Shown one piece after another: positions 9,075 through 32,000 of a stretch of DNA of 32,000 nucleotides. This DNA comes from Candidatus Saccharimonadota bacterium (GTDB lineage: Bacteria > Patescibacteriota > Saccharimonadia > Saccharimonadales > Saccharimonadaceae). Numbering within the stretch: the stretch's first letter is position 1; each line of letters starts with the position of its first letter. The notes beneath the pieces are model-generated. The model was not told the DNA's origin, did not search any database, and worked only from the letters and a program-made list of their open reading frames with translations. The position numbers and the translations under genes are program-made. The DNA lies in assembly GCA_000503915.1 (NCBI GenBank), contig CP006915.1:780001-812000 (forward strand). The letters are read 5' to 3'.

Positions 9075-10037
9075 CTACTTTTCCCACGGGAAATCGGCGT
9101 GGCCGAAGTGGCCATAGCGTGCGGTTTGCTCGTAAATTGGCTGCTTAAGATCCAAAAATGAGATGATACCACGCGGCGACAAATCGTAGCCCGTTACTTC
9201 TTCCGACCGTCCGTCAACCACCGCTGTCGCTTCGAGCGGCTGATCGTAACCAATGGCATACGCGAGGTAGACATAGACTTCACCCGCCTGTTTTTTCTGC
9301 AGATAATCGCGCGCGATTTTGCGTGCCATGTACGCCGCCGAGCGGTCGACCTTGCTCGGGTCTTTACCGCTGAAGCAACCACCACCAATCGGAATACGCG
9401 GACCATAGTTGTCGACCACCAGCTTGCGCCCGGTCAAGCCGGCATCAGCATCGAAGCCGCCCTGATGCCAGTCACCCGCCGGGTTGGCATGAATTGCTAC
9501 AGTATCACTCGTGTTTTTATCTTTCAGCCATTCCTCTACGGCCGCCCTCAACTCGTCGTGTGGTGCATTTTGAAAGCTGGCAACCACGGCCACGATCACG
9601 TCATCTTTCAGCGTCACTTGGGCCTTACCGTCAAACGGCCATTTTTCATAGAGATATTGGTTTAATTTACGGGATAATACTGTTTCGTGCGGCAATAGCT
9701 CCTCGGTTTCACTACAGGCATACCCGACCATAATCCCTTGGTCGCCTGCTCCGCCAGTATCGACGCCGTGAGCGATCTCTGGGCTTTGTTTCACCAGGTG
9801 TACGTCGAGCTCAACGTCACCGGCAATCTTTTTTACGATCGGCTCGATTGCTATGTGATCATTCGCCGTCACTTCGCCGGTGATAAACACCTTGCCATGG
9901 CCGCCAACCGTTTCCACCGCAACACGAGCATTTGGATCTCCCGCCAGATAGGCATCTAAAATAGCGTCCGATATTTGGTCGCACAGTTTGTCTGGGTGTT
10001 TTGGACTAACTGATTCGGCGGTTCTATAATTTGACAT
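9075..10037 (-). CDS. metK: S-adenosylmethionine synthetase (short form)
   Basis: 320 aa. ESVSPKHPDKLCDQISDAILDAYL matches the MetK N-terminal signature (GHPDK..DQISD); also GGAGDQGIMVGYA and GGGCFSGKDPSKVDRSAAYMAR. Confidence 0.9.
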   Translation of the reverse strand: MSNYRTAESVSPKHPDKLCDQISDAILDAYLAGDPNARVAVETVGGHGKVFITGEVTANDHIAIEPIVKKIAGDVELDVHLVKQSPEIAHGVDTGGAGDQGIMVGYACSETEELLPHETVLSRKLNQYLYEKWPFDGKAQVTLKDDVIVAVVASFQNAPHDELRAAVEEWLKDKNTSDTVAIHANPAGDWHQGGFDADAGLTGRKLVVDNYGPRIPIGGGCFSGKDPSKVDRSAAYMARKIARDYLQKKQAGEVYVYLAYAIGYDQPLEATAVVDGRSEEVTGYDLSPRGIISFLDLKQPIYEQTARYGHFGHADFPWEK

Positions 10038-14191: not shown

Positions 14192-14980
14192 ATGAATGAT
14201 GACATCTACAATGAGTTGAAGGAAAGCCTGCGCCTCTCCATCTTAAAGTACGTCTCTCATAAATCCTACGACAGCAAGCATCCCCTTGACGCTTTAATTC
14301 CCCAAGAAAGAAAAATCAGATCAATCGTAGGCGGGTTAGAGACCAGCATGGGAACCACCATCTGGGAACCGCTAGCAAAGACGCTTGCAAAAAATAATGG
14401 CTTCGAGATCATATCAGAAAAGATCTTAATCCCAAGCCCTATGCCAAAAGAACTTGCCGCAGAATTAGCAATATTGATTTCCCTACGAGAATCTAAATTG
14501 ACTTGGATACCTATTAAGCAATGTGTAGCTAGATTAAGAGAGATATGTGGGAAAATCGATCGATCTCTTATCCGGGGCTACACTGCCCCACCATCAGGCA
14601 CTGGTGTAGATATACGCTTGAGAAAAGATGGCACTGAGTATGCCTACGATACAAAGACAGTTCAACCCAATCTTGGAAGCGTTAAAAGCTTTAATAAACA
14701 AATCTTAGAATGGTATGCGTATGCGCTGTGTAAAAATCCATCGCTCGATATAAGATGCGGCATAGCTTATCCCTATAATCCTTTTGAAGGTAACTTTTGG
14801 TCGCATACCCCTCATACCAAGGGCGTCCTTGAACATGGCGTTGACGCCTTCGTAGAGGATGAGTTTTGGGACTTTCTTTCTGGCTACAAAAATACCTTTG
14901 GAATCATTACAAAATGTTTTGAAGAGCTTGCTGATGAAGGATTTGGACAAGAAATCTCTGAGTTGATAAAAAAGATTTAA
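14192..14980 (+). CDS. candidate type II restriction endonuclease (PD-(D/E)xK-like; possibly TdeIII-like)
   Basis: 262 aa lying immediately upstream of, and co-oriented with, a C5-methyltransferase. GTGVDIRLRKDGTEYAYDTKT offers a D...D-x-K arrangement. AT-rich relative to the flanks. The family assignment is from memory only. Confidence 0.5.
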   Translation: MNDDIYNELKESLRLSILKYVSHKSYDSKHPLDALIPQERKIRSIVGGLETSMGTTIWEPLAKTLAKNNGFEIISEKILIPSPMPKELAAELAILISLRESKLTWIPIKQCVARLREICGKIDRSLIRGYTAPPSGTGVDIRLRKDGTEYAYDTKTVQPNLGSVKSFNKQILEWYAYALCKNPSLDIRCGIAYPYNPFEGNFWSHTPHTKGVLEHGVDAFVEDEFWDFLSGYKNTFGIITKCFEELADEGFGQEISELIKKI

Positions 14981-15032
14981 AGAGCCCTTGCATAATGCAA
15001 AGGTTACTGCAATAATGTACTCAGGGGGAACC

Positions 15033-16325
15033 ATGAGCAGTTTATACACTATCGCAGAAACCGCTGAAAAAATTGGCGTCTCGGTCGATACTATTCGTCG
15101 CTGGGAAAAGAAGGGGCTTATCAAGTCGAGACGCAACGAGCTAAACCACCGGGTATTTTCATTCGATGAAATTACCCGCATTCACCGCAAAATTTCTGGC
15201 GACTCAGAGCACGACAACAACTACAAAATTCTACAAAATCATGGCTCCAAAAACTATACAGCAATAGATTTATTTGCCGGAGCGGGCGGTACGGCACTAG
15301 GTCTTGAGCATGCCGGCTTTAAGCACGTTTTACTCAACGAATACGACAAGCACGCAGTGGCCACACTCCGACTTAATAAACCTGAGTGGAATGTGGACGG
15401 TCGAGATATTCATGAAGTTGATTTTAGTGAGTGGCGAGGAAAAGTTGACGTTATCGAGGGTGGCTTCCCCTGCCAATCATTTAGTTATGCCGGTAAGCGA
15501 CTTGGCTTCGATGATACACGCGGCACGCTCTTTCATGAGTTTGCTCGAGCCGTAAAGGAGGTGCAGCCGAAAGTTGCTATTGGAGAAAATGTCCGCGGCT
15601 TACTTAACCACGACGAGGGTAGAACGCTCAAAACAATGGTCAAAGTTTTACAAGATCTCGGATATAACGTTGCATATAAAGTTTTACGGTCACAATACTT
15701 AGACGTGCCACAAAAGCGAGAACGCCTTATCATCATGGCTGTTCGAAAAGACGTTTCTGACAAACTTGTTTTCCCGAAGGAGCGCGACTATACCGTTTCA
15801 CTTCGTGAAGCCATCGGCGACAGACCCAAGAGTGATGGTCAGCAATATTCCGAGCGTAAGTACGAGATCATGAAGCAAGTCCCAGAAGGCGGCTACTGGC
15901 GCGATCTTTCTGATGAGATTCAGCGTGAGTATATGAAAGCAAGTTATTTCCATACAGGTGGCAAGACAGGTATGGCTCGTCGCCTGTCGTGGGATGAGCC
16001 AAGTTTGACTCTGACTTGCAACCCGGCTCAAAAACAGACCGAGCGTTGCCACCCGGAGGAAACTCGTCCACTCAATGTCCGCGAATATGCACGCATTCAG
16101 ACGTTCCCAGATGACTGGCAGTTCAGTGGCTCAGTTTCTCAGCAATACAAACAAATTGGTAACGCAGTGCCAGTGAACCTTGGCTACTACATGGGAAGCG
16201 CCGCTATTCATATGCTGGACGGCACAACTTCCGACGACTTCGAGCTCGTCGATCCATTAGACCCCACGACAGACACTATTGAGGCCGATGAAAAGCAGCT
16301 GGCGCTTATCCCTGCGCTTGCTTAA
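15033..16325 (+). CDS. DNA (cytosine-5)-methyltransferase with N-terminal MerR-type HTH
   Basis: Motif I DLFAGAGGTALG, IV GGFPCQSFSYAG, VI IGENVRGL, VIII QKRERLIIMAV, IX-X TFPDDWQF...YKQIGNAVPV. The N-terminus YTIAETAEKIGVSVDTIRRWEKKGLIKSRRNELNHRVFSFDEI is a MerR-like HTH. Start chosen at the ATG after the AGGGGGA SD. Confidence 0.9.
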   Translation: MSSLYTIAETAEKIGVSVDTIRRWEKKGLIKSRRNELNHRVFSFDEITRIHRKISGDSEHDNNYKILQNHGSKNYTAIDLFAGAGGTALGLEHAGFKHVLLNEYDKHAVATLRLNKPEWNVDGRDIHEVDFSEWRGKVDVIEGGFPCQSFSYAGKRLGFDDTRGTLFHEFARAVKEVQPKVAIGENVRGLLNHDEGRTLKTMVKVLQDLGYNVAYKVLRSQYLDVPQKRERLIIMAVRKDVSDKLVFPKERDYTVSLREAIGDRPKSDGQQYSERKYEIMKQVPEGGYWRDLSDEIQREYMKASYFHTGGKTGMARRLSWDEPSLTLTCNPAQKQTERCHPEETRPLNVREYARIQTFPDDWQFSGSVSQQYKQIGNAVPVNLGYYMGSAAIHMLDGTTSDDFELVDPLDPTTDTIEADEKQLALIPALA

Positions 16326-18095: not shown

Positions 18096-18842
18096 CTAGT
18101 CTAAAACGCTTTCAGTCACAGGCTCCGGATTGCTTTTCCTGATAGCTTTTCGCTTCGTGCGAAGCCGTGGCTTCGGAAATTCAACTTCCTTAACAATGAT
18201 CTGGCGTAATGATTCCGCAACGTCTTCAATTTGAAAATATATTCCAGTTTGCTCTTTCAAATCATTACGCAAACGCTTAACAATTTCTTCTGAGTAAAGG
18301 ATTTTTGAGAGATTCTCAGGATTTAAGGCATTCGTTCTTTTCCAAAACGTTTCAAGTTCATTTTTCTCGACAGCTTTTTTAGTGAGATTCCAGAGAAGCT
18401 CCGGCGCTTTCTTTAAATCATCAGAATCGGTTAGATTGATTTTAAAAATGAGAGTTGTCGAAATCGGTTTGCCAAAATTCACCCTATAAAGCTGAACTTC
18501 CCTTCCGTTCATGAGCAAAATCCAGTCGATGCCTTCGTTGGCTGCGTACGACAAACTCTGCCGCAGATGCTTTTCATTTATATCGAGATCTATCGATTTC
18601 ACTTCAATCACAAAATGCTTTTTACGCTTCAGCTGAATAACGTAATCAGCGTACTCTGACTTAATTCGATACTCTGTTTTTATCTCCTCGAGCTCTTGGT
18701 AACCAAGTATCTCAGTAAGAAAGCTATTGGTCATGATCCTCGTGTCGGCTTCATTGCGATTTGAAAAGCCTTTTCGCAAATATTTTCGCTTATACTCTTT
18801 TAAGCCTTCTCGAAGTGTCTTCAATTGATTATCTGTTGCCAT
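18096..18842 (-). CDS. HsdR-N-terminal-like (PD-(D/E)xK) nuclease-domain protein, solitary
   Basis: NEADTRIMTNSFLTEILGY, ADYVIQL, VIEVKS, QSLSYA, ILLMNGREVQLY reproduce the type I restriction enzyme R-subunit N-terminal domain pattern. No helicase, HsdM or HsdS nearby. AT-rich. Confidence 0.6.
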   Translation of the reverse strand: MATDNQLKTLREGLKEYKRKYLRKGFSNRNEADTRIMTNSFLTEILGYQELEEIKTEYRIKSEYADYVIQLKRKKHFVIEVKSIDLDINEKHLRQSLSYAANEGIDWILLMNGREVQLYRVNFGKPISTTLIFKINLTDSDDLKKAPELLWNLTKKAVEKNELETFWKRTNALNPENLSKILYSEEIVKRLRNDLKEQTGIYFQIEDVAESLRQIIVKEVEFPKPRLRTKRKAIRKSNPEPVTESVLD

Positions 18843-24528: not shown

Positions 24529-25074
24529 CTACGAAGATAGCATATGATTTCTGACGATCTTTTCAACTAATTTATATACATCTCGTGGCGATCCATTTGC
24601 ATCCACTCGAATCAAATCAGGCCTTTGTAGCGCTTCAATAAAATCATACTTAAACATTACATCTTCAAGTTTATCACCGCCAAGATTCAAGTGCTTTTTA
24701 TTTGTACGACCACGATTTTCGATGCGCATACGATGTGTCTCAAGTGATGCCTGTAGGATGACCGGCAAGATTGAAACTTCTGGCATATCTCGCTTAAGTG
24801 AATCGAGGCTATCCCATACTTTTGCTGTCGACATGTGCGTATCTATGATAATAGTGATGCCATTAGCAAGTTGCTTCCTTGCTAAATGCCACATAACCTC
24901 ATAAGCAAGCGGTGATACTTCGTGGAAGTCTTTATTTAAAGCTCTGCGTAGAGCATCATTAATAACGTCGGAACTGAGTACGGGGTAATTACACTCCATA
25001 GATAGTTTATTCGCGATTGTTGTCTTGCCCGCTCCAGCAAAGCCACCAATTATAATAAGATTCGCTGTCTTCAT
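24529..25074 (-). CDS. P-loop kinase / AAA_33-like ATPase
   Basis: Trimmed to MKTANLIIIGGFAGAGKTT (Walker A), then IIIDTH (Walker B-like). AT-rich. The track's 44-codon N-terminal extension runs through the tRNA-like fragment. Confidence 0.7.
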   Translation of the reverse strand: MKTANLIIIGGFAGAGKTTIANKLSMECNYPVLSSDVINDALRRALNKDFHEVSPLAYEVMWHLARKQLANGITIIIDTHMSTAKVWDSLDSLKRDMPEVSILPVILQASLETHRMRIENRGRTNKKHLNLGGDKLEDVMFKYDFIEALQRPDLIRVDANGSPRDVYKLVEKIVRNHMLSS

Positions 25075-25130
25075 ATAAACATTGTAGCAAAACAAAAAAC
25101 TCGCCTGGGAGGTCTTCTTACAACTCTTAA

Positions 25131-25204
25131 GCTTGGCTGGGGATGAGGGATTCGGAACTATTGTCATGCTCCTCGAATAGCTAAAGCTATCTCGTCGGCC
25201 AAGC
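25131..25204 (-). other. 74-nt tRNA-sized element closed by a perfect 7-bp stem, containing a tRNA-3'-end-like fragment
   Basis: Minus strand GCTTGGC...GCCAAGC encloses 60 nt including GTTCCGAATCCCTCATCCCCAGCCA (25158-25134). I could not fold a cloverleaf. Confidence 0.35.
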
Positions 25205-25268
25205 AAGTAAAACTCAAACAGTCACTGACTGTTTTCGCCCTCTCGGGTTCGAATCTATCTCAAACATA

Positions 25269-25498: not shown

Positions 25499-25552
25499 TC
25501 GTAATACCTTCTTTTCAAGAAAAATGCCCATTTTTAATTTATAGTGAATGTA

Positions 25553-26065
25553 ATGGGTAGGAAATCTAGTGTTAATTGGGTACAAGCTAGAGAGCTATAT
25601 CTTAAAGATTCACGATATAGCTATTTTGAGATAGCTGAAATATTTGGCGTGAGCAAAGCTTCGATACAAAAACGAGGTACTAAAGAAAAATGGCCAGAAC
25701 AGAGAAAAGCCTACTCTAATGCGACACTTTCAAAGAAACTCAGCATGCTGTCTATTGATGTCGATGTTGCAGAGGTGAACACACGCCATATAAAAGACTT
25801 CCGAATGATGCAGGCAATGGCAAGCAGGATATTTATTAAGGCCTGGGAGGAATATAATGAGGGTAAATTGAAGAAGGCGGCGCTAACACTTAAGCGTGCC
25901 TCGGACACGATGATTATTGGCATTAAGGGTGAAAGAAAAGTTCTCGGTTTACCAAGCGTCCGTCGCTTTAATGAGATGAAGCCCAAGGATCCGGGGCCAT
26001 GGATTGAGCTCGCAAAAGAGATCGAAAAATCTCGGCAAAGACCTACGACTAAAAATCAAGAGTAA
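25553..26065 (+). CDS. HTH DNA-binding protein, terminase-small-subunit-like
   Basis: WVQARELYLKDSRYSYFEIAEIFGVSKASIQKRGTKEKWPEQR resembles the N-terminal HTH of phage small terminase / YjcR-like proteins. Assignment from memory. Confidence 0.5.
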   Translation: MGRKSSVNWVQARELYLKDSRYSYFEIAEIFGVSKASIQKRGTKEKWPEQRKAYSNATLSKKLSMLSIDVDVAEVNTRHIKDFRMMQAMASRIFIKAWEEYNEGKLKKAALTLKRASDTMIIGIKGERKVLGLPSVRRFNEMKPKDPGPWIELAKEIEKSRQRPTTKNQE

Positions 26066-27068
26066 TTGTTACGGGTGAACTATTGGCGTGAATTGTCTTG
26101 CTATGTACCTCTATGCCCTTTAGTGGAGGGAATACATTCTTATTAATCAATTGGTTCAGCAAGACATACCGACATATTTGACGAAGTTGATCGACTAAGC
26201 TTTCTAATGAATAATTATCACTCTTGTACTCCTCAATGGCTTTCTTGGTGGTATATTCTGTCACACCGTCATTAAGTGAACCTCGACCAATAATAAGAGC
26301 AGGCATTAGCCCGTTGTGAACCGTGTTATTTCTTATTTCACTTCGAGCAACATCAAATATGAGACGATATTGCTTTCGGATTTCTTTGTCTTTTATGCGA
26401 CTAAAGAGCAGTTCTTTCCAGTCTTTATCCGCATTATTTATAGGATGATTAACGCCCTTACCGCAGGTCTCACATTTTCCTTTGCAAAACTCAGGCTTTG
26501 GCAGAAGCGCCTCCATGGCGGATATAAGTATTACTACCTGCCAGTACGCTGGATCAATACTTCGCAGTCGAGGGTTAAAGTCTATGTCTTGTGCTAGGAA
26601 ATAATTTTTGAGTGCAGCTATGTATACATCATCGGTTTTGAGGTAAGCTTTATAGATTTCATCATAGGAAACTTCATCTTCAACTTCATGCCCCCAATAC
26701 ACTCCCGGGAGGACGCTTCTAAAATCTAGACGCATTTCTCGAGCGGTTACTCCAGGATATTTTTCAGTATCAAGATCTTCAACATTAAAATCACTATACG
26801 TTTGCCCATATGCCTGGAAAGCGTATAGGGGCAGCCGACTGTCGGCTAATAATGCATGCATGTAAATCCACTTATCAATTTTCCCGTGATAGCCGTCCTC
26901 TTCTACTGTGAGTGACGCCGACCAGTGTGGTCGGTTCCAGTCATCAAGTACCGTAACTGATCCGGCTCTTGCAATTTTGAGTCCCTTGGTTTCGATAGGT
27001 AATGTAGGTACCAAATAGCTAGGAAGTCGTCTAATATTCTTCACTTTAAAGTTTTCGCATTCTGCCAC
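26049..27068 (-). CDS. HEPN-motif protein (putative RNase effector)
   Basis: 339 aa. ARSEIRNNTVHNG carries the R-N-x3-H (Rx4-6H) HEPN signature in a helical C-terminal half, preceded by CKGKCETCGK. The N-terminal half looks beta-rich. The GTG start sits inside the 3' end of the upstream gene (23-nt overlap). Confidence 0.55.
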   Translation of the reverse strand: MAECENFKVKNIRRLPSYLVPTLPIETKGLKIARAGSVTVLDDWNRPHWSASLTVEEDGYHGKIDKWIYMHALLADSRLPLYAFQAYGQTYSDFNVEDLDTEKYPGVTAREMRLDFRSVLPGVYWGHEVEDEVSYDEIYKAYLKTDDVYIAALKNYFLAQDIDFNPRLRSIDPAYWQVVILISAMEALLPKPEFCKGKCETCGKGVNHPINNADKDWKELLFSRIKDKEIRKQYRLIFDVARSEIRNNTVHNGLMPALIIGRGSLNDGVTEYTTKKAIEEYKSDNYSLESLVDQLRQICRYVLLNQLINKNVFPPLKGIEVHSKTIHANSSPVTITLDF

Positions 27069-27651
27069 TACATATTCGCTGGATATTCTTTAGAGGTTTA
27101 TCGAAGTATGTGTCGACTGAATACTTGGCGTCATCAAAAGTGTCCGCATCGCCTTTATAGCTTAGAATCTTCTCGATAGATGATTGTAGCGCCTTGTCGT
27201 CCCTGTCTTTTGATTTATTTTTCCAACGTTTAATCAAGTGGTCTTTTTCTGTCCCAATCAGTATGAAGAATGCCTTATCAAGCTGACCTTGTTGTGTGGT
27301 GAGAATATCCCTGTAGCTATTAGCCTTCTCCTCATAATTAAAGGCAGCTTGTTTCTGTATTTCAAGTTCAGTGATAGATGAAGCATCCCCGTCCCGAATC
27401 ATATGCATCATTGAACGAAATGAAATATTAAATTCGTGAAATACAATGAGAGTTCTTCGTATATTGCGTGCTGACGATATGACATCACCGTATGCTTGCT
27501 TCAACTCTTGTTTTTCGTTACGACGCCTTGTTATGTACTCGTTAATAAAGAAACCCAACATCGTTGTAATGGCAGCTATTATTGCAGCCAGTATCGTTGA
27601 GTTTAATATCTTATCCATGCAACTTATTATAAACTTTTTTCCTTCTTTCAC
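27046..27651 (-). CDS. N-terminally membrane-anchored helical protein, unknown function
   Basis: 201 aa. TM ILNSTILAAIIAAITTMLGFFI followed by a charged helical domain. TATCAT ends 6 nt before GTG 27651; the alternative start is ATG 27618. Confidence 0.55.
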   Translation of the reverse strand: MKEGKKFIISCMDKILNSTILAAIIAAITTMLGFFINEYITRRRNEKQELKQAYGDVISSARNIRRTLIVFHEFNISFRSMMHMIRDGDASSITELEIQKQAAFNYEEKANSYRDILTTQQGQLDKAFFILIGTEKDHLIKRWKNKSKDRDDKALQSSIEKILSYKGDADTFDDAKYSVDTYFDKPLKNIQRICSGRMRKL

Positions 27652-27772
27652 GGTATAATGATAATTGTCTAGGATTCAAACAATTAGTTAACGCGACCAG
27701 CCTCGCGTAGTTGTGCCGTAAAATGGGCAGCTACGTAAAAAAGAATAGGCATAACTGCTTGTTTGGGTCCTA

Positions 27773-27799
27773 GACAGTCCAGCGTGGCTGTCCTTTTTA
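27773..27799 (+). terminator. intrinsic terminator-like hairpin in front of the 27841 gene
   Basis: GACAG(t)CCA-gcg-TGGCTGTC followed by CTTTTTATTT. No + strand CDS for 1.7 kb upstream. Confidence 0.45.
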
Positions 27800-27840
27800 T
27801 TTGGAAGCCGCGGATTATTAACTCAAAGGAGGAGGAAACC

Positions 27841-28459
27841 ATGGCTACCAAGCAAAAAGAGTGGAAAGATATGTCAAAAGGTGAAAAGACTATGACCGTT
27901 CTAATCCTGCCCATTATCATAATAATTATTATTGCAGTCGCATCAGCAATATTCGGTGGCGATAAGAAGACTAACGAATCGGTAGCTAAAACCGAGATTA
28001 GCAAAACAGAAACTGCGCAACCCGTTCCTAAATTCGATACGTACCTAAATCGCCCTATGAGCGAAGTTGCGTCGGAATTTGGCCCAAACCTACGATCCAG
28101 CGAACAGTACGCAGATACGGGCCGAAAAAGACGGCTACAAGCTATTCTTTGAAGATGGCGGGCGCGATGATCCGGCCGACACACTTAAGAAACAAAATAC
28201 TGGTCAAGTAACAACCGTTAATATGGATTTACCACGGTTAGGTAAATGTAAGCAGGACCAGGTATTCGGTAAGATTGATGAAGCCATGCGGATTGCCGAA
28301 CTCAACCCAGAAACTAAGGGTGACAAAAGCGGCACACAGCAAGGCTATGCAGTTTACAAGAATTACATAGGTAAAGAAAGCCTGGAATTAAGTTTGATTT
28401 GCGAATACGATAACGCAAATTACAAACTACAACTACGAGTTTTGCCAGAATATAGATAA
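27841..28459 (+). pseudogene. membrane-anchored protein split by a +1 frameshift (or sequencing error)
   Basis: SD AAAGGAGGAGG then ATG 27841. MATKQKEW...TM(LILPIIIIIIIAVASAIF)...NRPMSEVASEFGPN is in frame 1. Plausible sequence continues in the next frame as YDPANSTQIRAEKDGYKLFFEDGG... to 28459. The switch point is near ggcccaaacc (28081-28090). Confidence 0.5.
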
Positions 28460-28509
28460 TCTGCAATTTAACTGGACTTTCTATTTTATCGAGCTAATAT
28501 GTGTCATGT

Positions 28510-29769
28510 ATGGAGATCAACCAACAGATACGATACTGCTTGTACGCCCGTAAATCGAGCGAACAAGACGAGCGTCAAGCGATGAGCATAGACTCACAAA
28601 TAAAAGAAATGTCCGCCATGGCGGAACGAGAGGGTCTGCAAGTGGTTGCGAGGAAGCAAGAAAGCTTCTCGGCAAAACAGTCTGCAAAGCGCCCGGTATT
28701 CAATGAGTTACTCGAGGCAATAAGAAACGACGAGTTTAATGGGATACTTACCTGGGCACCTGATCGCTTGTCACGTAATGCCGGCGACCTTGGCTCACTC
28801 GTTGACCTTATGGACTCTGGCAAGTTACAGCAGATACGAACTTTCGGACAAAGTTTCAGCAATACACCAAACGAGAAGTTCCTCCTGATGATCTTGTGTT
28901 CGCAAGCAAAGCTCGAGAACGACAACCGTGGTATCAACGTTAAGCGAGGTATCCGGGCAAAGTGCGAAATGGGTTGGCGGCCATGCATGCCGCCACTTGG
29001 TTACTTCACTCGCGCGGCGACCGGTAAGCAGCGGGACGTAATCATAGACGAAGAGCGAGCGCCTCACATTGTCAAAATGTTTGAAATGTGCGCCGCCGGT
29101 AAAAGCGGACGACACATAAAGCAATTCCTTGTCGAGAATGATGTACGCACTCGTAAGGATAAGATGATTCACTTAAGCATGGTCTACAAAATTCTTAAGA
29201 ACCCGTTCTACTATGGTCGCTTCGAGTATCCTGCTGGTAGCAGTAACTGGTATCAGGGGAAGCATATCCCGCTCATATCTAAAGAATTATTTGAACAAGT
29301 GCAAGCGCAATTGGTCGTCCCTCAAAAATCTAAATGGGGAGCTAAGGAGTTCCCTTATAAGCAATTTCTAAAGTGTTATTCTTGTGGATCGAGCATTGTA
29401 GGAGAGGAAAAAATCAAGCAATTTAAAAATGGTAATAGGCGTAGATACGTTTATTACCACTGCTCTCGACAGGTTGATTATGATTGTAAAGAGCCCTTTG
29501 CTTCTGAGGCGGCGATAGTCACGGCATTAACTAAGCTCAGTAATGAACTCATATCTGATGTATTAAAAGTAGAGCCAGGGTTAGCTGCTGCAATTGAAAA
29601 ATTTGCAAAAATGATCTCTCTAACTAATGATGCTCATATTAAAAATAATGTAATGGCAGCGTACATTCGATACGTCTTAAAGGATGGTTCGTTATTTGAG
29701 AAGACAAGGCTTGTCCGCAATCTGCAAACAGGATTGGCCCTTCATGACAGAAAGTTAGTAAGTCTTTAG
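28510..29769 (+). CDS. large serine recombinase
   Basis: YCLYARKSSEQDERQAMSIDSQ (resolvase catalytic Ser region), SRNAGDLG, recombinase domain (NPFYYGRFEY), zinc ribbon CYSCGSS...YYHCSRQVDYDC. Confidence 0.85.
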   Translation: MEINQQIRYCLYARKSSEQDERQAMSIDSQIKEMSAMAEREGLQVVARKQESFSAKQSAKRPVFNELLEAIRNDEFNGILTWAPDRLSRNAGDLGSLVDLMDSGKLQQIRTFGQSFSNTPNEKFLLMILCSQAKLENDNRGINVKRGIRAKCEMGWRPCMPPLGYFTRAATGKQRDVIIDEERAPHIVKMFEMCAAGKSGRHIKQFLVENDVRTRKDKMIHLSMVYKILKNPFYYGRFEYPAGSSNWYQGKHIPLISKELFEQVQAQLVVPQKSKWGAKEFPYKQFLKCYSCGSSIVGEEKIKQFKNGNRRRYVYYHCSRQVDYDCKEPFASEAAIVTALTKLSNELISDVLKVEPGLAAAIEKFAKMISLTNDAHIKNNVMAAYIRYVLKDGSLFEKTRLVRNLQTGLALHDRKLVSL

Positions 29770-29805: not shown

Positions 29806-32000
29806 TTACTTATTAAGCCACTTCTCGTAACTGTGGTGAAAATTGTAATTTCGGGATATAAGTTTGTCATATATGCGCTTTACTACATCATCGTGGGTAT
29901 CTATTTTTTCAAGTTCGGCTAGTGCTACGTCGAAGTCATACGCTATCGAAGCTTGTTCGGGATAATCGATAAGAAACTCGAGATCTTTTAAGAACTGCTC
30001 AACACCAAGATGTTCTCGGACTTTTGCAAGAATAGAGCCGTTGTAGTGAAAAGGCCACCAATTATATTCGCCCGGGTGCTGGTCCTTTTTTGACTCTGCG
30101 ATTATGGCCGGTCTTTCGAAATCTAGACTCATTCTCCAAATCTTGTAACAATCATCAAACTTTTTATCGATATAACGCTTAATAAATATATGAAGATGAC
30201 TATAAACATGATGGTTATAGTTCTTAATAGCAAAGGGGAGGTATTTTATACTTATAGCGAAGAACTTATCAAAATTGCCATTGTTTTTAATTGGTTCTTC
30301 GGGCAGTTTTGCGATGTGCCAAACCAAAGATTCTCTGTGATCTTCTGAGCCATTTTCTAGGAAATCTTTTAACCTATCTTGAATTAGTTTTGGGTTATAT
30401 GGGGGCATTGGTCCGCCACGTGCCTTTGACCAATTCCTAAACGCACCCTTTCTGAATTCTGCAAGGAACAGGAGTAATGTATCAAGCTCTTTTAGTGTTT
30501 CTTTATCGCCGTGCTTTACGAATATATCAATGACTTCGAGTGCCTGAGACTCATTCATGGTTCTGATTCTATTGAAGACTCGTGCTAAGTGTTGCAAAAT
30601 CCCATAATGATAATTTGTCTTATCTTTCAACATAGTGAAAGCAAAGTCTTCTATCCCTTTGGCCGTAGAATATTTCATAAACCAATCCTTACTTTCAGGC
30701 ATAGTCGTGTGGCGATTGTTAGCAAGTGCTTCAAGCATTAGTAGTGATAGTTGTCGAACATACAAACTCTCGTCTGTACAGAGCTTTTTTGTGAGTTCAA
30801 ATGCACGCTCCGTATAATCTCGCCCTGCAACGGAATTAACGGGCATTAGTATCCAAGCAATACATCCACGCACACTACTGATTTGGATATTATGCTTTCC
30901 TTCAACAACGTCCTTATCAAACTCGCTATTTTTCTCAGGGCTTGGATCGGTGATAAAGAAGTCTGCTATATAGAAAGCTTCTTCAAATTTGTGCTTTTTT
31001 GAAAGCTTCTCGGCAAACCAAACGAAGTTCTCCCGTGTTTCAGTATTTGTAATTTTTGCGGCAAGTTTTGCAGCATTACCTGCAATCTCTAGTTCAGGCT
31101 TAACAATATCTAAGTAAATAGTGTCGAGATAGTCGTCAGGCATATCTCTTAAAACTGAACCAAAAACTCTCTGCTGATTCTCGGTCGGCTTATTGGCAAC
31201 TAGTGAACGCAGTATACCTATACCATTGTCGTAATCTTTCTTTAAAACATTGAGGATTGGATCTTTGGCGTCATACGAATGGAATGAGTCAAGCGACTTA
31301 GAGAAGTAATCACCGTGAAGAAATCCCTCTAAAAGGTGAGTACCCTGCTGGAAAGTGTCGTCGTTGCTAATGAGACGCATAATGGATTGAATTACGGTTG
31401 TATCAAACATAATTTGCCGATTCATATAGTCCTCATTCGCTAAAAGATTAGAGAATGTCTCTATGGCCTGCTCGTGTTTTGCCCCCAAGAGCCCCCAAAG
31501 AACCTGATCCATAAATACGTTAATTGGATAGCCAAACTCTTTAATCGCAACATTCAATAAAGTCCATTTTTGTTCGATGCTCAGTGTCTCGGAGTCTCTA
31601 ACATAAAAGAAAATGAGCTCGGCTTTGTGAGGTATGCCTTTCCTCATCTTTATGAATTCAGACAATATTCTAAAAGCTTTTTTATTGCCTTGTTCATATT
31701 GTTCAAGTAAGAATGGAATAAACGCCCTATTCATAAAGTCGGGTTTAGACTCGCTCACTTCGCTGACTTTAAGAGATATATATTTATCAGCAAGCTTCCA
31801 TTTTTTATCAATAGGCAACCTTTTAAGATAGGGCTTGATAATTGTTCTTATAAAGACTCTGTCGTGAACCTCATAATCCCCTCCGAAGTTTGACGTACCG
31901 CCTCCCATCAATTCCCAGCCATCATATTTGATCTTGAACCTCTCATATTGCCGGCTGTATTGATCTGCAAGTTGTTCAAGTAAATAACTAAAACTGCTTG
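29806..32000 (-). CDS. large all-helical repeat protein, N-terminus outside the window
   Basis: The track gives 701 aa from TTG 31911, but the frame stays open upstream to position 32000 (...SSFSYLLEQLADQYSRQYERFKIKYDGWELMGGGTSNF...). No catalytic or NTP-binding motif recognised in the visible part. Confidence 0.6.
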   Translation of the reverse strand, partial: SSFSYLLEQLADQYSRQYERFKIKYDGWELMGGGTSNFGGDYEVHDRVFIRTIIKPYLKRLPIDKKWKLADKYISLKVSEVSESKPDFMNRAFIPFLLEQYEQGNKKAFRILSEFIKMRKGIPHKAELIFFYVRDSETLSIEQKWTLLNVAIKEFGYPINVFMDQVLWGLLGAKHEQAIETFSNLLANEDYMNRQIMFDTTVIQSIMRLISNDDTFQQGTHLLEGFLHGDYFSKSLDSFHSYDAKDPILNVLKKDYDNGIGILRSLVANKPTENQQRVFGSVLRDMPDDYLDTIYLDIVKPELEIAGNAAKLAAKITNTETRENFVWFAEKLSKKHKFEEAFYIADFFITDPSPEKNSEFDKDVVEGKHNIQISSVRGCIAWILMPVNSVAGRDYTERAFELTKKLCTDESLYVRQLSLLMLEALANNRHTTMPESKDWFMKYSTAKGIEDFAFTMLKDKTNYHYGILQHLARVFNRIRTMNESQALEVIDIFVKHGDKETLKELDTLLLFLAEFRKGAFRNWSKARGGPMPPYNPKLIQDRLKDFLENGSEDHRESLVWHIAKLPEEPIKNNGNFDKFFAISIKYLPFAIKNYNHHVYSHLHIFIKRYIDKKFDDCYKIWRMSLDFERPAIIAESKKDQHPGEYNWWPFHYNGSILAKVREHLGVEQFLKDLEFLIDYPEQASIAYDFDVALAELEKIDTHDDVVKRIYDKLISRNYNFHHSYEKWLNK

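Follow-up and report, generated by a model that had tools for sequence, protein, structure and literature searches.

HEPN domains are described as four-helix up-down bundles with frequent inserts between helices 2 and 3, marked by an Rx4-6H motif in which a polar residue, N, D or H, comes right after the arginine; a second acidic residue is often found in helix-2, typically in the context E-x3-[KR] (PMC3710099). HEPN RNases of the Abi type include Abi2/AbiD/AbiF, AbiU2, AbiV, ApeA and HEPN_Cthe2314 (PMC3710099). The stretch of DNA analyzed here, 32,000 nt from a Candidatus Saccharimonadota bacterium (contig CP006915.1), is called the window throughout. It carries on the minus strand two adjacent genes, gene 1 and gene 2, read in an initial annotation as a candidate defence module made of a membrane-anchored protein and a protein with a HEPN motif. 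Gene 2 has relatives at many other loci, and on balance probably encodes a self-contained, HEPN-like, metal-independent endoribonuclease which acts as an abortive-infection or conflict effector, a reading suggested by conserved residues, structural models and genomic context and held with modest confidence.

The active site of the KEN domain in Ire1 and RNase L features a tyrosine together with R-N-x3-H. In KEN, a HEPN family, the arginine, the histidine and the polar residue after the arginine are catalytic (PMC3710099). RAZR, or PD-T7-4, is a ring-activated zinc-finger RNase in which DUF4145, where R146 and H154 are spaced as R-x7-H, comes after a Cys4 zinc ribbon at the N-terminus. Its defence is of the abortive-infection type, phage proteins being sensed by the non-catalytic domain, and its HEPN nature was not evident from simple searches (PMC13017515).

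The gene 2 protein family

Close homologs of gene 2 number 26, all about 330 amino acids (aa) long and unannotated; the named sources are Candidatus Saccharibacteria or Saccharimonadia. A deeper, exhaustive profile search collected 110 representatives at 50% identity, nearly all 300–340 aa long and matched over the full length. No match to gene 2 was found in single-sequence scans of Pfam, PADLOC, NCBIfam and PHROGs, and no named system corresponds to it; the initial annotation likewise knew of no described system with the architecture of the pair. Scans of 26 and 78 family members against these libraries gave no recurrent family, and searches of PDB sequences with the gene 2 protein and two profiles returned nothing meaningful. 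This is a previously unmodelled and unannotated protein family.

In an alignment of 78 members, which reaches down to about 18% identity and has a mean column identity of 15%, the sole invariant columns are Y234, R246 and H251 (gene 2 residues are numbered according to the 339-aa open reading frame, ORF, defined below). The last two belong to the motif I-R-[H/N]-x-T-V-H, represented in the window by RNNTVH, which had been singled out at first reading as a version of the HEPN motif R-N-x-x-x-H. The motif holds across the alignment: R246 and H251, with their 4-residue spacing, are found in 78/78 members, and position 247 is occupied by H (40 members), N (34) or D (2), that is, by a polar residue in 76/78. 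Since two of the three invariant columns fall within it, the motif marks the functional centre of the family, and is no chance match. Position 186 is acidic (E or D) in 78/78 members. A cluster of cysteines, CKGKCETCGKGVNH, had also been noticed in the window protein; it is conserved, and H208 completes it. C195 is kept in 72 of the 78 members, C199 in 76, C202 in 70 and H208 in 76 (90–97%), and the Cys3-His set is a predicted structural zinc site. W67, H71, Y135, Y175, W176 and R300 are likewise strongly conserved. R246 and H251 are predicted to be catalytic, together with the invariant Y234 and the acidic E186.

Predicted structure and relationship to HEPN domains

The whole gene 2 protein was modelled by AlphaFold with a pLDDT of 86.5 and a pTM of 0.86, and residues 128–339 alone with a pLDDT of 90.2. 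The N-terminal part is beta-rich in the model (strands 10–58), as had been guessed from the sequence. This domain is retained in nearly all family members and is slightly more variable than the C-terminal one (mean pairwise identity 0.20 vs 0.26); it is a candidate sensor or oligomerisation domain. In the C-terminal domain the proposed core is made by four helices: H1 (residues 147–164), H2 (173–186, with E186 at its end), H3 (228–252) and H4 (285–308). The insert between H2 and H3 consists in the model of the putative zinc hairpin, 194–209 (strands 194–198 and 205–209), and a short helix, 213–220. H3 carries Y234 and, at its end, R246 to H251, and stops just after H251; a loop, a strand and a short helix separate H3 from H4, as assigned by DSSP on the AlphaFold models.

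Compared with the HEPN definition, the family features Rx4-6H with a polar residue after the arginine, and in the predicted models the motif ends a long helix. Motif and motif position fit the definition, as far as the models can be trusted, and the acidic residue and the site of the insert may fit it too. Several results weigh against the assignment and the proposed function. The acidic residue which ends helix 173–186 lies in an E-x3-G/P context, not in the typical E-x3-[KR]. The HEPN fold match anticipated by the initial annotation did not emerge: Foldseek returned nothing significant with either the whole protein or the C-terminal domain, the best E values being 0.5 (PDB) and 0.057 (BFVD) for the whole model and 1.5 for the domain against PDB. 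AbiV (9bj7; E = 3.1, TMq 0.22) and Csm6 (6tug; E = 5.4, TMq 0.26) are among the nine best non-significant matches of the domain, and TM-scores to HEPN proteins measure just 0.22–0.26. In hhalign comparisons with a HEPN_Cthe2314-like family encoded beside some gene 2 homologs (family A4) the probability was 0.1–0.3%, and the 16-column motif alone was aligned. Among the 26 or the 78 members, matches to HEPN models of Pfam or PADLOC do not recur. Relatives were found neither in the viral contigs nor in the annotated phage and plasmid records searched, and the defence phenotype of the family is inferred from genomic context.

Weak hints in favour of HEPN are the presence of AbiV and Csm6 among those non-significant matches and the sub-threshold matches of single members to CARF_HEPN, HEPN_AbiU2 and Hypoth_Ymh. 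An ApeA-like N-terminal domain, which the initial annotation had suggested looking for, is not seen, and HEPN_Apea (PF18739) is matched neither by the window protein nor by the 78 members at E <= 0.1. Foldseek matches of the N-terminal domain to CRP and PII folds were discarded as noise (probability <= 0.1).

Confident models devoid of significant structural neighbours in PDB or BFVD, and the lack of a profile link to any HEPN family in the scans and the hhalign run, would also suit a C-terminal domain which is not HEPN at all: a novel helical fold with zinc, some other nuclease, or a module binding nucleic acids or proteins, whose Y...R-[H/N]-x3-H patch would have converged on the HEPN motif. 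The conserved Cys3-His set, which adjoins the motif helix and is foreign to canonical HEPN families, points in the same direction. This alternative is nevertheless doubtful. The spacing of the motif, the polar residue after the arginine and the placement of the motif where a long helix ends match the published HEPN description; the upstream acidic residue, which ends the preceding core helix, and the place of the insert may match it as well. Linking HEPN families to one another by sequence is known to be difficult, and Foldseek is weak on small helical bundles. This alternative and those weighed further on overlap in part, and the likelihoods assigned to them are not intended to sum to one.

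Taken as a HEPN-like enzyme, the gene 2 protein has the Abi-type RNases among its closest known counterparts. The invariant R-[N/H/D]-x3-H ending a long helix is a point in common; the conserved acidic residue of the core helix before it, and the insert which the model places between helices 2 and 3, may be others. The residence in defence islands or mobile elements beside HEPN-like genes is also shared, and one family member is fused to an AbiU2-like region. Gene 2 differs from them by the Cys3-His knuckle inside the domain, the family-specific beta/alpha N-terminal domain and the E-x3-G/P context, as well as by the absence of matches to HEPN models, hhalign probabilities below 1% and non-significant Foldseek results. 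Like RAZR, the gene 2 product would combine in one polypeptide a zinc-binding module and a divergent HEPN-type domain with conserved R and H. It departs from RAZR in its predicted zinc site, which is of the Cys3-His type and embedded in the helical core, in the R-x4-H spacing of its motif, and in its N-terminal domain, an unrelated fold of beta/alpha type; the gene 2 protein and its family match neither DUF4145 nor any PADLOC model. The resemblance to the KEN domain of Ire1 and RNase L concerns the composition of the active site only, the invariant Y234 being located in the same helix, 12 residues before R246. KEN has a circularly permuted topology and is joined to a kinase domain, and no sequence or structural match links it to gene 2.

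If the HEPN-like assignment is correct, the enzyme may work as follows. The N-terminal beta/alpha domain (approximately residues 9–127) would sense a trigger or keep the enzyme inactive, and the C-terminal four-helix core would hold the active site. In this site H251 would serve as the general base and R246 and N247 as stabilisers of the transition state, the remaining parts being Y234 and E186. The Cys3-His zinc knuckle between helices 2 and 3 may have a structural role, or contact RNA or a partner. By analogy with other HEPN enzymes, the active site may be a composite one, built when two copies of the protein dimerise, and the dimer may cut RNA of the host or the phage upon sensing of an infection. 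RNase activity, dimerisation and zinc binding are all predicted properties of the protein.

Coding capacity and junction of the two genes

Two minus-strand ORFs had been delimited in the window, and both were recovered, at 26049..27068 (339 aa) and 27046..27651 (201 aa). The 23-nt overlap between them, and their translational coupling, had been proposed on this basis. The overlap turned out to be an artefact of start-codon choice: all gene 2 homologs start at the residue aligned with GTG 27044 ("MKNIRRLPSY"), and GTG 27068 is replaced by GCG in L016 (L-numbers denote the loci holding homologs), so gene 2 encodes 331 aa. Tight coupling is still plausible, because the gene 1 stop codon is followed, after a single nucleotide, by the gene 2 start (Table 1). 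This stop-A-GTG arrangement, which fits termination-reinitiation coupling, is kept in four loci, the window (TAA), L012 (TGA), L016 (TAA) and L030 (TAG), with three different stop codons, and its retention argues for selection on the juxtaposition, and hence for co-translation in the lineage of the window.

Both genes are real coding genes under purifying selection. Compared with L012 and L016, gene 1 features 21–24 synonymous and 3 non-synonymous codon changes; in gene 2 the numbers are 34/9 and 92/19 (synonymous/non-synonymous), and most changes occur at third positions.

Gene 1 most likely starts at ATG 27618, since its homologs begin at M12 of the longer ORF. The product combines a predicted membrane anchor at the N-terminus with a conserved domain of about 150 aa at the C-terminus. 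The hydrophobic helix suspected at its N-terminus was confirmed, the Kyte-Doolittle 19-residue maximum being 2.18 at residue 18. The residues TRRRNEK after the helix, read with the positive-inside rule, suggest that the C-terminal domain would be cytoplasmic. Library matches to PADLOC "1TM" (E = 2.9e-4), TraD (E = 3.2e-4) and Spore_III_AB were discarded, as they cover the transmembrane helix alone and are uninformative on function.

A probable accessory role for gene 1

The initial annotation envisaged membrane protein and HEPN protein as a two-gene system, and the survey of homologs does not support a conserved unit of this type: the two genes co-occur in a narrow clade only. Gene 1 has 5 detectable homologs, compared to the 26 close and 110 deep homologs of gene 2, and the window, L012, L016 and L030 are the only loci where it adjoins gene 2. 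In about 11 other distinct contexts no membrane ORF was found upstream on the same strand. Gene 1 is missing beside every gene 2 homolog at <=62% identity, and many of these lack any upstream gene on the same strand. The 79%-identity homolog (L008/L009) has a ribosome-binding site, AGGAG, in front of it, and the 40 upstream nt that are available contain no recognisable gene 1 C-terminus. In L029 there is a 118-aa relic of gene 1, non-adjacent to the divergent family member of that locus. At many loci, a tightly linked yet variable downstream gene is found instead of gene 1.

These data bear on the hypothesis that the pair is a dedicated two-gene defence or toxin-antitoxin module, gene 1 being an obligate partner which serves as sensor, tether, pore-type effector or antitoxin. 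The stop-A-GTG junction kept over four loci despite three stop codons, the purifying selection on both genes and the retention of the pair in L030 at 77.5% nucleotide identity are in keeping with it. Membrane partners of HEPN RNases are moreover known, for example Csx28, reported for Cas13b, and membrane-linked HEPN proteins have been described (PMC3710099). An obligate pair is all the same unlikely given the distribution of the two genes, the arrangement at L008/L009 and the L029 relic. Most members of the gene 2 family exist without gene 1, which therefore cannot be an obligate antitoxin. The constant cognate antitoxin gene of type II toxin-antitoxin systems is not seen either, most members having no conserved adjacent partner. 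The pair resembles Cas13b-Csx28 and the Abi2/Swt1-type HEPN proteins fused to transmembrane segments (PMC3710099, section 15) in that a HEPN-type enzyme is, or may be, linked to a small membrane protein. It differs in that gene 1 is a separate gene found in a narrow clade only, and its sequence shows no relationship to those partners.

As judged from this distribution, gene 1 is a lineage-specific accessory and no defining component. It may be a membrane-anchored accessory acquired by the immediate lineage of the window only and not needed by the family. It would be co-transcribed with gene 2, probably be translationally coupled to it through stop-A-GTG, and may tether or modulate the enzyme.

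Genomic contexts of the family

The defence-cargo setting first assumed for the pair recurs in the family: at most loci, gene 2 homologs are cargo of defence islands or mobile elements. Flanking genes differ at almost every locus, and conflict and mobility genes dominate. Restriction, reverse-transcriptase, HEPN-like, DUF4238 and PDC-S05 genes recur as neighbours. L004 features a serine recombinase, DUF5681, DUF5677, a HEPN_Cthe2314-like gene and DUF4238; L023 features DUF3644/EC042_2821, a HEPN_Cthe2314-like gene and Replic_Relax; L027 a resolvase, GmrSD, a C5 methylase, DUF5677 and a reverse transcriptase. A PDC-S05 gene (E = 2e-18) is found in L025; a serine recombinase, a reverse transcriptase and a tandem distant paralog in L005-L007; a Type ISP restriction enzyme, an ImmA/IrrE-type protein and DUF4411 in L031. 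Serine recombinases are located <6 kb from the homologs in L004, L005-L007 and L027, and beside gene 1 in L030.

The lack of a recognisable defence gene near the homologs in L001 and L024, and the position of gene 2 in the window, between a terS/HTH-like (helix-turn-helix) gene and a recombinase within a segment common to sister loci, could mean that gene 2 serves the maintenance or housekeeping of an integrative element of the serine-recombinase type, for example in RNA processing or regulation, and has no anti-phage function. This is very unlikely, as flanks vary at almost every locus and the recurrent neighbours are of defence type, not element core genes. The family is also sporadic, being present in 4/185,579 species representatives in a scan with a narrow pattern, and none of its members resides in viral contigs, phage or plasmid records. 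The HEPN-like conflict effector is the favoured reading of gene 2.

Some of the linked genes deserve mention. The HEPN_Cthe2314-like genes of L004 (7014-8300) and L023 (5932-7233) encode proteins of 428–433 aa, and start 11–16 nt downstream of gene 2 homologs in at least 2 loci. Their family has 32 homologs, from Saccharibacteria where the source is named, and features an invariant R311-N-x3-H316; the 428- and 433-aa neighbours also give weak Apea matches. This gene is a possible recurrent partner in the sub-clade concerned. A general conserved downstream partner was rejected, because the linked genes (579, 428/433, 314, 245, 120 and 288 aa) are not all alike.

In L005 (7021-7965), and in L006 and L007 too, a 314-aa distant paralog (E = 7e-9 with the family HMM, hidden Markov model) is located 19 nt downstream of a family member; the paralog is preceded by a 423-aa group-II-intron/DRT-like reverse transcriptase, and the tandem layout is reminiscent of two-HEPN enzymes. 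The reverse transcriptase upstream in L005-L007 prompted the idea of a retron or DRT with the gene 2 family as effector. This was rejected as a general rule, since a reverse transcriptase is found on the same strand in one context only and looks group-II-intron/DRT-like.

In L031 (8001-9788) the family member P0053 (595 aa) is fused to an N-terminal region of about 275 aa, and lies beside the Type ISP restriction enzyme. The additional region gives a sub-threshold match to HEPN_AbiU2 (E = 0.026) and carries a motif of its own, QRNRGYAH (R-N-x4-H). In L010 (4849-6001) the homolog P0005 is located 672 nt downstream of smpB, with no called gene in between; a tmRNA gene, hence an integration hotspot, might be expected there.

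The mobile segment and other features of the window

Coordinates of the features discussed are listed in Table 1.

Table 1. Position of the gene pair, its predicted domains and motifs, and neighbouring features in the window
Feature	Position (nt)	Strand	Basis
Gene 1, about 190 aa from the most likely start ATG 27618 (mechanical ORF reaches GTG 27651, 201 aa)	27046..27618	-	
Predicted transmembrane helix of gene 1, ILNSTILAAIIAAITTMLGFFINEYI, followed by TRRRNEK	27532..27609	-	Hydropathy
Gene 1/gene 2 junction, TAA-A-GTG (gene 1 stop, 1-nt spacer, gene 2 start)	27042..27048	-	Direct read
Gene 2, 331 aa from the conserved GTG start (mechanical ORF to GTG 27068, 339 aa)	26049..27044	-	
Gene 2 N-terminal domain, residues 9–127: predicted beta-sheet (strands 10–58), then two helices; W67 and H71 conserved	26688..27044	-	
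Gene 2 C-terminal helical domain, residues 128–310, proposed HEPN-like core	26139..26687	-	AlphaFold DSSP
Cys3-His cluster, C195-x3-C199-x2-C202-x5-H208, on a predicted beta-hairpin between proposed helices 2 and 3	26445..26486	-	
R246-N-N-T-V-H251, Rx4H motif at the C-terminal end of predicted helix 228–252	26316..26333	-	
Left edge of the segment common to the window, L012 and L016	25310..25330	.	blastn and lined-up sequences
Convergent HTH protein, 173 aa; its 3' end overlaps the 3' end of gene 2 by 17 nt	25544..26065	+	
Large serine recombinase of the element	28501..29769	+	Pfam Resolvase 3.8e-21, Recombinase 5.3e-16

The AT-rich surroundings of the pair and the proximity of a large serine recombinase, both reported at the outset, were confirmed. 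The GC content is 0.39–0.46 over 24–32 kb of the window, against 0.50–0.55 over 1–12 kb. In addition to the Resolvase and Recombinase domains, the recombinase gives a Zn_ribbon_recom match (4e-4, 21.2 bits) which is under the 25.3-bit cut-off. Nucleotide similarity to L012 and L016, as measured by blastn, begins abruptly at the left edge listed in Table 1, and spans the HTH/terS-like gene, the gene pair and the recombinase; to the left, the flanks of the three loci are unlike one another. The abrupt onset fits a mobile segment. No tRNA or tmRNA integration site was found when sought in the window. The 173-aa HTH protein gives weak matches to terminase small subunits and DNA-binding proteins (PHROGs E = 5.7e-6 and 1.2e-5), and all its Pfam HTH matches are under cut-off.

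Similarity to L016 extends further, into a 701-aa ORF (29806-31911, minus strand) unmatched in Pfam, PADLOC, NCBIfam and PHROGs. Being common to L016 and located just past the recombinase, it looks like another unannotated cargo gene of the segment. Across the intergenic region from gene 1, an ORF for a small membrane protein is found in divergent orientation (27763-28152). Between gene 1 and this ORF there is a 25-nt inverted repeat (27666-27776), the arms of which are 84% complementary and 61 nt apart, which could be an operator or regulatory site for divergent promoters.

Just outside the left edge of the segment, an AAA_33/zeta-toxin-like kinase is encoded at 24529-25206 on the minus strand (Pfam E = 1.4e-16; PADLOC PDC-M51B E = 2.1e-6); a similar AAA_33/Zeta_toxin gene is found in L010, about 5 kb from the gene 2 homolog. 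A separate restriction-modification island is located at 14192-16325 and 18096-18842, in a lower-GC stretch of the window (12–19 kb, GC 0.41–0.47). It includes a TdeIII-type type II endonuclease (E = 5.9e-31), a 248-aa HSDR_N_2/MmeI_N-like protein, and a C5 cytosine methylase with an N-terminal MerR-type HTH (E = 6.7e-86). The Rfam scan of the window revealed an S-adenosylmethionine (SAM) riboswitch only, distant from the gene pair (RF00162, 10077-10183, minus strand, 58.8 bits, E = 2.4e-11). It lies directly upstream of the S-adenosylmethionine synthetase gene (9075-10037), an ordinary housekeeping arrangement.

Significance

The gene 2 family is new and unmodelled, and its probable general kind, HEPN-type conflict RNases, is known. 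Its distinctive features, as they appear in sequences and models, would be the internal Cys3-His knuckle, the private N-terminal domain and the absence of detectable structural neighbours. A bolder interpretation is that the family is a conflict enzyme which contains zinc and has a fold class of its own, or a derivative of HEPN remodelled so far as to define a new clade. The N-terminal domain would sense phage components in Saccharibacteria, which are episymbionts of the candidate phyla radiation (CPR), and the lineage of the window would have recruited a membrane partner, giving rise to a membrane-localised RNase defence unlike any named system. This scenario is unlikely.

Tight coupling of genes in a single genome is no evidence of a conserved system, as the pair in the window illustrates. 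Should the gene 2 protein be a HEPN-like effector, R246, H251, Y234, E186 and C195/C199/C202/H208 would be the targets for mutational analysis. The phylum has received little study, not much has been mapped of the immune systems of Saccharibacteria and other CPR bacteria, and standard tools such as PADLOC and Pfam miss this family. If the favoured reading is correct, these organisms would host a new family of HEPN-type abortive-infection effectors, set apart by a zinc knuckle inside the core and an N-terminal domain of its own; the locus described here would then be an example of an effector gaining lineage-specific accessory genes.

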